Part shown: positions 1 through 3,045 of the stretch, piece after piece | Layout: every line of letters starts with the position of its first letter | Numbering within the stretch: position 1 is the stretch's first letter | Source: a virus | Taxonomy: Duplodnaviria; Heunggongvirae; Uroviricota; Caudoviricetes | Strand: one strand, 5' to 3' | DNA length: 7,608 nucleotides | Virus record (IMG/VR): IMGVR_UViG_2703718816_000006 | Coordinates: 1-7,608 of that record | Program-made: the position numbers and the translations under genes | The notes under the pieces: generated by a model | Told to the model about the DNA's origin: nothing | Database searches by the model: none | What the model saw: only the letters and a program-made list of their open reading frames with translations

Positions 1-1617
1 CAGGGACATCAGGGATACCGCATTGAAGAGCGCCATCAGCGGGTCAATTTTCCCCCGTCCGCTGGCCTGTTTGGTAATAAGGATGGCGTTACCTCTGGGC
101 TCCACCCGGGCATTGCCAACGCACCAGGCCATCAGTGACTGACCACCATGCACCAGCACTCCCTCAGCCAGTTTGCGCTCGGTGGTTTTGATGGCCCCGC
201 CCAGCTTCCAGCCCTGGCTTATCCCCACCACAATTCCTTCGGGGATCCCGGCTTCTGCCAGTGAATCCAGAATCTGCCCCACACCTGACGGGTCAATACC
301 GATATGGTCCAGTAACTCAGCCTCATGAATACGACGCACATACTCCGCCACTTCCGCCGTGTCATCCCCGACCCGACGGACAATCGTCATGTCTCCACTG
401 GCCACAAAATCCTGAAACCGGGATGCTTCACTCTTCCGTCTGACCACCGCGGTTTCATGCGCCCAGGCATGGCCCCAGCCCAGCCATTCGCGGGTTTCCC
501 TGTCACGACCAATCACGTACATTCCCAGCAGATCATCCAGGCCCCCGCCGTCAATCCCCACCGTCACCACATCAGCGCGCTGCAGGATATCGTCCAGGCT
601 GACGCGCCTGCCCTGCTGCTCCCAGAAATCCGCACCCGCCCAGCGGTCAGAACGCAGGGCAAGACCAATTTCCACATTGGCGTGTTTTGACATGAAGCCA
701 CGAAATGCCTCCTCACCAGCCTCCCGGGCTTTACGGTACTCCCGATACAAAAAGGCCTCATCCACCGAATAACCGAGATTCGGGTTAACCATGGCGAGGT
801 TTTCCATCAGCAGGTGCTCACCGCGCTCCACCATCTCCGGCGGATGCTCAAATATCACCGGCAGAAAGTGCGGATCATTAATTTTGCCGTCGCGCACATC
901 CCGGGCGTACTGCAGTTTCTGTCTGAACACCCCGGCGGGCGGCTCATTCGACTGGGTGGTTGTGTACACAACAAACCCTTCCGGGCGGGAGGCAAGGCCG
1001 CCTATGGCTTCACGTAACATGTCCTCCGCTTTGTACTGCTTGCCAAACAGCCACAGTTCATCAATCAGCGTCCCCACGGACTTGATACCGGACACCGTAT
1101 TCGGATCGGCAGCCACCACCTTAAGGGTGGTGTCCGTCACCCTGTGGGTGATGGTCCGGATATGTGTCTGCACCTGACAGAGGTCATCCAGATCATCGTC
1201 CCGTCGTACCATATCCCTGGCAGGGTTGAAGGCGTTAGCCGCCACCTCCACGGTCGGGGCCAGAATGGTGTAGCCCGCCGCCTGCCGCCAGTTCAGTAAC
1301 AGCGCCGTCATCATGATCCCGGCAGCCAGCGTGGACTTGCTGTTTTTTTTGGGTATCAGAATGAACACTTCCTTTATATGGCGTATACCGGTCTGCGCAT
1401 CGTAGGAGCCAAACAGGGCCGCCACCAGGTCAAACACCCACGGTGCACAGGACTCCCCGAACGTCGGGCTGCCCGGTGCATCCACAATCCGCAGTTGTTT
1501 AAAAATCGCCAGGGCATGTGCGGCCTGCTCCGGGTAAATCGGAGCCGGAATAATCGACAGCCCCTTTTTCAGGCGCTCTGCCCAGTCCGGGCAGGCCGTG
1601 CTCCACACAGGTATCAT
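1..1617 (-). CDS. Terminase large subunit (ATPase + nuclease), partial: C-terminus lies beyond the left edge
   Basis: Manual translation from ATG at 1617..1615 gives MIPVWSTACPDWAERLKKG... and stays open to position 1 (end of window reads ...GRGKIDPLMALFNAVSLMSL). Deviant P-loop FILIPKKNSKST, Walker-B-like LIDELW, nuclease-like VGIDGGGLDD. The track omits it because there is no in-window stop. Start overlaps the TerS stop (ATGA). Confidence 0.88.
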   Translation of the reverse strand, partial: MIPVWSTACPDWAERLKKGLSIIPAPIYPEQAAHALAIFKQLRIVDAPGSPTFGESCAPWVFDLVAALFGSYDAQTGIRHIKEVFILIPKKNSKSTLAAGIMMTALLLNWRQAAGYTILAPTVEVAANAFNPARDMVRRDDDLDDLCQVQTHIRTITHRVTDTTLKVVAADPNTVSGIKSVGTLIDELWLFGKQYKAEDMLREAIGGLASRPEGFVVYTTTQSNEPPAGVFRQKLQYARDVRDGKINDPHFLPVIFEHPPEMVERGEHLLMENLAMVNPNLGYSVDEAFLYREYRKAREAGEEAFRGFMSKHANVEIGLALRSDRWAGADFWEQQGRRVSLDDILQRADVVTVGIDGGGLDDLLGMYVIGRDRETREWLGWGHAWAHETAVVRRKSEASRFQDFVASGDMTIVRRVGDDTAEVAEYVRRIHEAELLDHIGIDPSGVGQILDSLAEAGIPEGIVVGISQGWKLGGAIKTTERKLAEGVLVHGGQSLMAWCVGNARVEPRGNAILITKQASGRGKIDPLMALFNAVSLMSL

Positions 1618-2177
1618 CCGTTGCCCTCATTATCATTATTCACCACCAGGCGGGGTGGTGGTGGCACCGCAAAACGGTTAGCCGCTTTTTTCGCCGCGTC
1701 ACCTTTTGCCGATTTTTTACCGGCATCCCCTTTTTTGTGGTGCGTGAACTGCGCCAGCTTATAAGCCACATCCAGCGCCAGCCTGGGGTCGGTATTAATG
1801 TTCTCCACCAGAAGACGCCCCATCGCTTTCACCGGATCGGGAAGACCGTCCTCCATATACTCAATACCAGGAGATATCACCACGGGCGGTGGCATCTCCG
1901 GATTTGTTTCGTCCTGCTGTGGTATTGCAGCCGCCTCACGGCGACGGGGTTTATCCTCCTGCTCTGATTTTTTCTGCCGGTAAACAGGAACCTCATCCAC
2001 CTCCACCGTCTCGCACTGTTTACGGGCTATAAACGCAAGCACCTCCGGATCTTTTGCCAGCTGCGAGCCTTTAACCCTGGCTGTCTTCGCCGAATAACCG
2101 GCGGCAATGGCTGACGCTGTTTTGTTTTTCCCGGACATGAGCGCCAGCGCAAATTTTCGTTTTTGCGTTGTCAGCAC
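1614..2177 (-). CDS. Terminase small subunit
   Basis: 187-aa ORF immediately upstream of and overlapping TerL; basic, Lys/Ala-rich N-terminus typical of DNA-binding small terminases. Start is GTG at 2177 preceded by GGAGGAGG (complement of 2180..2187). Family assignment is from position and composition, not from a search. Confidence 0.75.
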   Translation of the reverse strand: MLTTQKRKFALALMSGKNKTASAIAAGYSAKTARVKGSQLAKDPEVLAFIARKQCETVEVDEVPVYRQKKSEQEDKPRRREAAAIPQQDETNPEMPPPVVISPGIEYMEDGLPDPVKAMGRLLVENINTDPRLALDVAYKLAQFTHHKKGDAGKKSAKGDAAKKAANRFAVPPPPRLVVNNDNEGNG

Positions 2178-2467
2178 AGCCTCCTCCCGGGTCCAGAACG
2201 CACTCAGCCGGGTATGGTTCAGCCCATTTTTCCCGGCGTCTCATGCCGCAAATGTTAACTGCTGCCTGGTTAACATTTGCTGAAAAAGCCTGTTAACATT
2301 TTTTCCACGCAACAAACTGAATAATAAAGATAAAAACCGAAAAAATGCCCGGGCAGCCAGTTAACATGTTAACTGCCCTGAAACGGGAATTTTTTCTCTG
2401 CGTGAGAGGGGGCGCGGTGTCCGGAGCGATCGTTTTTTACGCCGGATGATACCCCCCCCCGGTCGGG
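2178..2467. promoter_or_regulatory. Candidate cos / packaging-initiation region between HNH and TerS
   Basis: 290-bp non-coding gap in the position where HK97-like phages carry cos. Contains a GTTAACAT palindrome cluster (2248..2375), a GC-rich core cgtgagagggggcgcggtgtccggagcgatcg (2401..2432), a T6 run and a C9 homopolymer (2452..2460). Exact cos ends cannot be determined from sequence. Confidence 0.4.
2248..2375. repeat. Cluster of five GTTAACAT octamers (three direct, two inverted) in two palindromes
   Basis: Inverted repeat gcaaatgttaac-N9-gttaacatttgc (2248..2280), a further copy at 2292..2299, and the perfect 18-bp palindrome cagttaacatgttaactg (2358..2375). Confidence 0.7.
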
Positions 2468-2833
2468 TTACAGTCCGATGATGTCGTCCGCTCTGCCACT
2501 ACCTCCGGACACCTCCGGCAGCGTCGGGTCCGGCATACCACCCGCCGCTTCACGAGCAGACTTTTGTCGATGGCATTCGGTACAGAGCGTCCAGAGATTC
2601 GTCTCCTCATTACCACCACCGAACTGAAGTGCAATTCGGTGATCGAGTTCACTGTCACAGAGGTCAACCACACGACCACAGAGACAGCACTGCCCGGCGT
2701 CCCTGAGCCAGATATGACGCTTGAGGGAAACACGTGCACTGCCACTGACACGACGCTGTTCACCATTCAGAATATTCACCCGTCGGGTATTCAGTGTTTT
2801 GATTCTGCTCTGGAGTGTACGAAGCTCAGCCAT
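2468..2833 (-). CDS. HNH endonuclease (terminase-associated type)
   Basis: 121 aa with HNH signature CCLCGRVVDLCDSELDHRIALQFGGGNEETNLWTLCTECH (CxxC...DH...N...CxxCH). ATG at 2833 with GGGGA upstream. Sits directly upstream of cos/TerS as in HK97-like packaging modules. Confidence 0.85.
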   Translation of the reverse strand: MAELRTLQSRIKTLNTRRVNILNGEQRRVSGSARVSLKRHIWLRDAGQCCLCGRVVDLCDSELDHRIALQFGGGNEETNLWTLCTECHRQKSAREAAGGMPDPTLPEVSGGSGRADDIIGL

Positions 2834-2874
2834 GTAAAATCCCCGTCATATGGCAATCAGTAAAGGAAATAAAT

Positions 2875-3045
2875 ATGTCATCGAAAAACCGGACCCGCAG
2901 AACCACAACCCGCAATATCCGTTTCCCCAATCACATGATTGAACAGATCAACATCGCCCTTGAGCATAAAGGGTCCGGTAACTTTTCAGCGTGGGTTATT
3001 GAAGCCTGTCGCCGGAGACTGACAACTGACAAGAAAACATGCTAA
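2875..3045 (+). CDS. Small ribbon-helix-helix (Arc/MetJ/CopG-like) DNA-binding protein, 56 aa
   Basis: ATG at 2875 preceded by AAGGAAAT (SD about 7 nt upstream). MSSKNRTRRTTTRNIRFPNHMIEQINIALEHKGSGNFSAWVIEACRRRL fits the RHH pattern of basic N-terminus, beta-strand, helix, Gly turn, helix. Divergent from HNH (41 bp between starts). Called by motif resemblance only. Confidence 0.55.
   Translation: MSSKNRTRRTTTRNIRFPNHMIEQINIALEHKGSGNFSAWVIEACRRRLTTDKKTC

Follow-up and report, generated by a model that had tools for sequence, protein, structure and literature searches.

A predicted cos site with a probable array of small-terminase recognition sites in a lambdoid prophage of Escherichia coli

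The packaging module and its intergenic interval

We analyzed a 7,608-nt stretch of DNA, hereafter the window, and found it to be part of an E. coli lambdoid prophage of the BP-4795/Lys8385Vzw type. The sequence is 97% identical to phage BP-4795 over 1.3 kb and 95–97% identical to phage 2851 and many Stx1a-, Stx2a-, and Stx2c-converting prophages. The genes on its minus strand are those for DUF826, lysozyme, Rz, an HNH endonuclease (2468–2833), TerS (1614–2177), and a truncated TerL (1–1617). The HNH gene was identified by a match to PF01844 and its counterpart in BP-4795 carries the annotation HNH endonuclease, while terS starts with a GTG codon (2175–2177) and has the Shine–Dalgarno sequence GGAGGAGG at 2180–2187. 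BP-4795 shows the same gene order, with terL overlapping terS and, as annotated, followed by the capsid gene and then the portal genes. A DUF3950/YlcI-family gene (2815–3045, plus strand) lies between Rz and HNH on the opposite strand, an arrangement kept in BP-4795 and relatives.

The packaging module was present in 1,278 of 5,426 complete E. coli genomes, with up to seven copies per genome, and its carriers include many Stx1- and Stx2-converting prophages. In these 1,278 genomes, RefSeq holds no annotation under the interval between the HNH gene and terS. The features of the module are given below by window coordinates and, where relevant, relative to the predicted cut, with +1 corresponding to position 2406 on the coding (minus) strand.

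2468..2833, minus: HNH endonuclease gene, 121 aa (PF01844 HNH, 29.7 bits against a cutoff of 21.4), directly upstream of cos
2452..2460, minus: G9 run on the coding strand (C9 on the plus strand), a position-fixed, length-polymorphic upstream element of cos
2385..2432, minus: conserved cos core CGATCGCTCCGGACACCGCGCCCCCTCTCACGCAGAGAAAAAATTCCC, near-invariant in close relatives and kept in Enterobacterales relatives and most satellites
2407..2416, minus: predicted 10-nt 3' cohesive end CGCGCCCCCT, homolog of the Lys8385Vzw end CGCCCCCCCT, with the coding-strand cut between 2407 and 2406
2390..2395, minus: A6 tract, +12 to +17 from the cut, kept in all classes including satellites
2358..2375, no strand: sites 1 and 2, forming the 18-bp palindrome CAGTTAACATGTTAACTG, +32 to +49
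2300..2357, minus: spacer rich in T-tracts, with tracts at +62, +71, and +79
2292..2299, no strand: site 3, a lone octamer that reads ATGTTAAC on the coding strand, +108 to +115
2248..2280, no strand: sites 4 and 5, the inverted pair AAATGTTAAC-caggcagca-GTTAACATTT, octamers at +131 to +138 and +148 to +155
1614..2177, minus: terS, 187 aa (PF03592, 35.8 bits), with residues 1–55 forming the helix-turn-helix (HTH) DNA-binding domain and the GTG start at +230 on the coding strand
1..1617, minus: terL, truncated by the window end (PF03354 TerL_ATPase and PF20441 TerL_nuclease)

The cos core, the cut, and the G-run

A sequence-only reading of the window had presumed that the interval between the HNH gene and terS contains cos, and published termini of a related phage support that presumption. 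Zhang et al. 2021 (PMC7946995) induced the Stx1 phage Lys8385Vzw and, using PhageTerm, assigned it 3' cohesive ends with the 10-nt sequence CGCCCCCCCT. Its record MT225100 carries the same HNH–terS–terL module, with an interval near-identical, base by base, to that of the window. The record ends with ...ggacaccgCCCCCCCT (...gatcgctccggacaccgCCCCCCCT), 59 nt past the HNH stop codon, and starts with ctcacgcagag (ctcacgcagagaaaaaattcccgtttcagggcagttaacatgttaactgg...); at the junction, the coding strand of the window reads ...gatcgctccggacaccgCGCCCCCT|ctcacgcagagaaaaaattcccgtttcagggcagttaacatgttaactgg, and the Lys8385Vzw junction aligns to 2407/2406. The predicted overhang falls within the GC-rich core at 2401–2432 (75% G+C by direct count), the segment that had been proposed as the cleavage site. 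With the termini mapping inside the interval and the interval itself sitting between the HNH gene and terS, beside a TerL of the families PF03354 and PF20441, the identification as the cos site of a BP-4795/Lys8385Vzw-type lambdoid prophage is supported. The cut position derives from one PhageTerm analysis, of a relative, and the coordinates printed in PMC7946995 are garbled. Among isolated phages, none besides Lys8385Vzw had record ends in the core; the record of vB_EcoS_phi330 starts at terL, not at cos.

The overhang itself varies among close relatives (L005–L084), the 10-mer being CGCGCCCCCT in 46, CGCCCCCCCT in 13, and CGCCCCCCGT in 15 of them; four have a shorter C-run at the overhang, and TerS is 89–98% identical across these prophages. 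Two contigs from different isolate assemblies break within 1–4 nt of the predicted cut, L029 starting with tctcacgcag and L179 ending with ...ccccctctca. These breaks could represent phage DNA ends in the sequenced cultures, lending weak support for the cut, or assembly breaks at a variable or repeat-boundary spot. We also noticed that the 3' end of the HNH gene contains a perfect 11-nt inverted copy of a part of the core (GGTGTCCGGAG / CTCCGGACACC; 2416–2426 and 2503–2513). The related locus L174 lacks this copy, and we judged it probably coincidental.

The C9 tract past the end of the HNH gene had been taken for an unusual, possibly slippage-prone homopolymer 8 bp beyond the stop codon. No other C or G homopolymer in the window reaches seven bases, and the tract begins 7 nt, not 8, after the HNH stop codon (2468–2470). 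Each of the 131 distinct core-carrying sequences had a G-run of at least five G's, with lengths of 5–13 and mostly of 7–9, and in 124 of the 131 the run ended 28–29 nt before GGACACC. The length polymorphism was thus borne out, while the tract proved to be a conserved part of cos with a fixed position rather than an oddity.

The approximately 48 bp around the cut and the G-run at a fixed upstream distance recur in Enterobacterales relatives. A block of ~110 bp lies directly upstream of terS in 20 loci/species of the genera Erwinia, Kluyvera, Atlantibacter, Serratia, Kosakonia, Enterobacter, Rouxiella, Pantoea, Phytobacter, Citrobacter, and Buttiauxella, with TerS proteins 33–48% identical. In these 20 loci, the block follows the pattern GGGGGGG(G)TA-N10-GTAAACATCGATCGCNCTGGACACCGCGCCCCCTCTCACGCACAGAAAAAATTCCCCTCTGGAGGGTGTAAACATGTTAACAGCG, the G-run being separated by 28–29 nt from GGACACCGCGCCCCCTCTCACGCAGAAAAAATTCCC. 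Phage HK97 (L297, NC_002167) also has a G9 run (583–591, corresponding to genome positions 39682–39690), located 32 nt upstream of its terminal 10-mer CGCCGCCAAA. Because the position of the G-run is fixed in relatives and HK97 has a G9 near its cos end as well, we assign the tract to cos. It is perhaps analogous to cosQ; our literature searches for cosQ or a role of the G-run in HK97 found nothing specific. In six loci without an HNH gene abutting cos (L085, L090, L093, L095, L100, and L101), ATCATTTCAAATGAT-type repeats are located just upstream of the G-run and resemble the HK97 sequence upstream of its own (L297, 530–575).

The octamer array and its covariation with TerS

On the terS side of the cut, at +32 to +155, the interval contains an array of short repeats. 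The sequence-only reading had counted five copies of an octamer in about 125 bp, arranged as an inverted repeat and an 18-bp palindrome, and the count and the arrangement were confirmed in full. The octamer GTTAACAT has five matches in the 7,608-nt window, at 2252–2259 (minus), 2269–2276 (plus), 2292–2299 (plus), 2360–2367 (plus), and 2366–2373 (minus), all within a span of 122 bp (2252–2373). The expected number was 0.21, and none of 200 dinucleotide shuffles reached a count of five. The bare hexamer GTTAAC is also found at 784, 3978, and 5314, the full octamer being confined to the cluster. The inverted repeat (2248–2259 / 2269–2280) has 12-nt arms of 100% complementarity and a 9-nt spacer, while the palindrome at 2358–2375 is perfect over its 18 bp.

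With at most one mismatch allowed, the IHF consensus WATCAANNNNTTR had no match in 2178–2467. Phased T-tracts occupy the place of the absent IHF consensus. The spacer between the palindrome and site 3 is probably intrinsically bent, and the positions of its T-tracts are equal in the window and in L174 though the spacer sequence differs. A small ORF starting from the ATG of the palindrome (MLTGCPGIFSVFIFIIQFVAWKKC; 24 codons, hydrophobic, coding strand 2367 to 2293) was rejected as a gene since it lacks a good Shine–Dalgarno sequence and its length and sequence differ in L174.

All five octamers were kept in 79 of 80 close relatives, among which the octamers did not separate from their flanks, the whole interval being conserved. 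Due to this, distant and mosaic relatives were needed. Two of them, L174 and L175 (TerS P0020, 76% identical), have the same architecture with another word in every copy. In L174, ATGTTTAY occurs five times (0.10 expected) with the strand pattern seen in the window, and the spacings of the octamers are 6, 68, 24, and 17 nt vs. 6, 68, 23, and 17 nt in the window. Alignment of the interval in related phages, named by the sequence-only reading as a check on the conservation of octamer spacing, therefore shows the same five-site geometry. In these class-2 versions, the palindrome is TATAAACATGTTTATA and site 3 is ATGTTTAT. The class-2 inverted pair reads ATGTTTAC-agggcagcg-GTAAACAT in the loci of P0020 and P0019. 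In that of P0031 the spacer is agggcagca, and in the truncated locus of P0012 just agggcagcg-GTAAACAT can be seen.

The word present in the array followed the DNA-binding domain of TerS. A sequence search of TerS against the PDB gave marginal matches only (E 0.17–0.7), and a fold search was therefore required. The N-terminal domain predicted with AlphaFold2 (pLDDT 92–96; helices 4–14, 19–25, 33–41, and 44–55) had its best Foldseek match in the DNA-binding domain of SF6 G1P (4zc3, 2cmp), with a TM score of 0.82 and an rmsd of 1.5 Å over 54 columns at 30% identity. In the model, residues 32 and 35 flank the start of the helix 33–41, the putative recognition helix. In every lineage examined, Thr32/Val35 was associated with GTTAAC and Ser32/Cys35 with GTAAAC or GTTTAY, and TerS proteins of satellites, with RFADA...GWQL, were associated with AAGTTACAC.

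We used mosaic TerS proteins as predictions for the word class. P0019 combines a P0014/P0017-type body with a class-2 N-domain, P0012 a window-like body with a class-2 N-domain, and both loci carry the class-2 word. P0014, with an N-domain identical to that of the window, has retained GTTAACAT. P0010, P0022, and P0032 have Thr32/Val35 and GTTAAC despite their strongly diverged spacers, and GTTAAC has similarly been retained in L301 and L305, where the spacers have diverged.

The pairing extends to a set of compact relatives. In these and in Salmonella phage FSL SP-016, terS starts ~40 nt past the cut, with ATG TTA ACA within GTAAACATGTTAAC, and the palindrome of the window is positionally homologous to this start (GGAGGGTGTAAAC ATG TTA ACA). 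The lineage of the window has ~190 extra bp holding three more sites, whereas the compact relatives have only one or two sites; their upstream site is degenerate in the window (GTAAAAAAC). Among the compact relatives, TerS proteins with SEKSARSKG (Ser32) are found with GTAAAC on both sides of the cut and those with SEKTARSQG (Thr32) with GTTAAC or GTCAAC.

A third pairing is found in small E. coli islands with a terS of their own (L167, L168, L172, and L173, with terS at 1501 or 3001; L170 and L171; and L306). They encode a D5_N primase or AlpA along with small ORFs, followed by a cos core accompanied by AAGTTACAC repeats and then by terS; in the P0062/P0076-type islands (L167, L168, L172, and L173), there are also genes for a 53-aa protein and a capsid-like protein of 307 aa (weak match to PF05065). 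None has an HNH gene nearby, and TerL is present only in the P0080 island; several terS islands adjoin AIDA autotransporter genes. The G-run is kept, as is the core in most of them, and the repeats are AAGTTACAC in direct and not inverted orientation. In L170, GTTACAC occurs five times against 0.56 expected, four of these copies belonging to the array that precedes terS and the fifth falling within terS itself.

The two domains of the island TerS proteins show opposite patterns of identity to the TerS of the window. In the N-domain, the islands are the most divergent, with 47–54% identity vs. 68–77% for distant phages, while in the C-domain they reach 58–69% vs. 35–48% for distant phages. The islands resemble satellites of this type of phage, and their TerS appears chimeric, with an N-domain of its own and a helper-like C-domain. 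As the identity patterns of the satellites and the distant phages are reversed between the domains, we infer that the N-domain may read the repeats and the C-domain may engage the TerL of the helper.

The geometry of the array is kept while the word switches in all copies with the class of TerS, and we consequently read the octamers as TerS sites; the concerted change of all five copies favors a single reader protein. The suggestion that the octamers could be cosB-like binding sites of the small terminase has thereby gained ground, and TerS recognition is the most likely function of the array given the sequence comparisons. As neighboring stretches of DNA, the repeats and the terS 5' end could also be co-inherited through plain linkage.

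We weighed three other explanations, all of which fit less well with the satellites, with the conservation of site 3 despite its lack of pairing, and with the concerted switching of the word. The octamers might be read by another protein of the phage (the HNH endonuclease, TerL, or a late regulator) or by a nucleoid protein of the host, with TerS reading only the A-tract by the cut. The TerS site of HK97 is indeed a single A-tract element at +15 to +29, TerS might here in fact bind the invariant A6 tract at +12 to +17, and the HNH protein diverges together with the motif (79% identity in L174). The A-tract is constant across the TerS specificity classes, however, and satellites lacking HNH and TerL genes at the locus combine their own kind of TerS N-domain with their own kind of repeats. 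As for host factors, the interval has no IHF consensus, and a host protein would not account for switches of the word between coresident phage lineages. We consider a different reader unlikely.

A role of the inverted repeats in the late RNA, as hairpins or a leaky terminator tuning terS/terL expression or mRNA stability, is still less probable. In the predicted RNA fold (z = –2.5, with 3 of 200 shuffles folding as well), the inverted repeats of 12 and 18 bp are paired into stems, and in class-2 relatives the two arms of each repeat have changed jointly. A hairpin is not, however, expected to switch its word in step with the HTH residues of TerS, site 3 is unpaired and yet conserved and word-switching, and the satellites carry direct rather than inverted repeats. 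Our search for an intrinsic terminator with a G+C-rich stem and a T run found only a weak, terminator-like site at 2352–2337 (minus strand); its stem has just five pairs and is absent in L174, and the number of such sites was not above that in shuffled sequences, so the candidate was rejected.

Finally, the octamers could be nonfunctional relics, duplicates of an old terS 5' end (ATG TTA ACA, encoding Met-Leu-Thr) that stayed behind upon the insertion of ~190 bp in this lineage. This scenario is in keeping with ATGTTAAC being the terS start of the compact relatives, with the positional homology of the palindrome to that start, and with the resemblance of the present terS start GTGCTGAC to the octamer word. 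We find it very improbable, as relics would decay independently, whereas 79 of 80 close relatives and also lineages with diverged spacers have retained the word and all five copies have switched in concert in the class-2 lineages.

Known packaging systems and the proposed reading

The cos site of lambda consists of cosQ, cosN, and cosB, with the gpNu1 sites R3, R2, and R1 and the IHF site I1, and lambda and phage 21 differ in their packaging specificity. The layout of the lambda site is described in PMC6092414. The order of the elements is the same in the window: an upstream element, the cut, and several TerS sites (putative ones here) that extend over ~150 bp in the direction of the small-terminase gene, the first being separated from the rest by a bend, in the window a predicted one. 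Both systems also show specificity classes in which the HTH of TerS and the repeats change together; in the window, five copies of a word expected 0.21 times lie between the cut and terS and covary with the DNA-binding domain. The systems differ in that the overhang of lambda is 5' and 12 nt long, whereas that predicted for the window is 3' and 10 nt. Unlike lambda, the window has an HNH partner, a TerS of family PF03592 instead of the Nu1 winged helix, and a word made of a short palindromic hexamer plus AT, and between the repeats it has phased T-tracts in place of an IHF site, for which no consensus match was found in 2178–2467. A paper on a Serratia phage, considered as cos literature, was set aside as it concerns an unrelated 5'-cos phage.

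Our comparison with HK97 covered TerL, HNH, the position of the site, and the G-run. The cos site of HK97 (TerL gp2, HNH gp74, and TerS gp1) likewise lies between the HNH gene and terS, and its cleavage by TerL and HNH gives 10-nt 3' ends (PMC11331095, PMC9410871), as predicted for the window. The TerL proteins are of the same Pfam families (PF03354/PF20441), and both sites have a G9 run upstream of the end, at ~32 nt in HK97, as well as an A/T tract just past the cut. The two diverge at TerS: that of HK97 binds one 15-bp A-tract site through a non-HTH substructure, while the window encodes a PF03592 protein with an SF6-like HTH and has an A6 tract and five repeats reaching to +155. The terminal 10-mer of HK97 also differs from that of the window, and comparison of the unaligned cores by eye revealed no similarity.

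In SPP1 and SF6, the pac site contains pacL and pacR boxes. The G1P proteins of these phages share the N-terminal fold (4zc3, 2cmp) and the Pfam family with TerS of the window, and in both systems multiple short repeats flank the cut. SPP1 and SF6 differ from the window, however, in packaging by the headful (pac) mechanism, with neither defined cohesive ends nor an HNH partner. The Stx prophages Lys8385Vzw, BP-4795, and 2851 carry the same module as the window, at 95–97% identity.

Taken as a whole, the proposal of a cos site with a cosB-like five-site array bound by TerS is, in our judgment, a probable one, built on comparisons among sequences. On the coding strand, the order would be the HNH stop codon, the G-run, the core, the A6 tract, the array of five GTTAACAT sites, and terS, and within the array, the palindromic pair, the probably bent T-tract spacer, the single site, and the inverted pair. 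The N-terminal HTH domains of a TerS oligomer would bind the five sites, marking the DNA as that of the phage, and the phased T-tracts would bend the DNA. The bound TerS would position TerL and HNH on the adjacent core, where TerL with HNH would most likely make staggered nicks and leave the 10-nt 3' overhang CGCGCCCCCT (2407–2416), and packaging would proceed toward terS. The location of cos between HNH and terS is already known, as is the 10-mer of a relative (PMC7946995, 10-mer only); the palindrome string, the repeat array, and the specificity classes were not found in the literature searched.

We tentatively suggest a further possibility, held with clearly less confidence than the proposal itself, that the N-domain of TerS and the adjacent array form a swappable specificity cassette defining packaging groups, with one cut site shared for TerL and HNH. 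The groups would be three: GTTAAC with Thr32/Val35, GTAAAC or GTTTAY with Ser32/Cys35, and AAGTTACAC in the satellites. If this is true, the up to seven coresident prophages of an E. coli genome may avoid cross-packaging, small satellites may hijack the TerL, HNH, and capsids of a helper by means of a chimeric TerS, and recognition may follow a code of one or two residues. With three words, two candidate residues, and mosaic proteins, the locus is a small, naturally occurring system in which to study how a TerS of the SF6 type may read DNA in a cos/HNH phage.

Knowledge of the cut site and the likely TerS word bears on which terminase packages which prophages and satellites, and the cut site helps to assign the genome ends of induced Stx phages. 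It can also flag defective prophages, such as those with an insertion element within cos. In the PPompW prophage (L295, LC567822.1), an IS110-family element, ISEc20 (1046–2504), is located inside the G-run of cos, corresponding approximately to 2452–2460 of the window, with ...ctttcGGGGGGG on its left flank and GGGGGatcatccggcg...cos on its right. In prophages of this type, the stretch from the Q/tRNA region to the insertion element is devoid of lysis and HNH genes, and their packaging is therefore probably defective.
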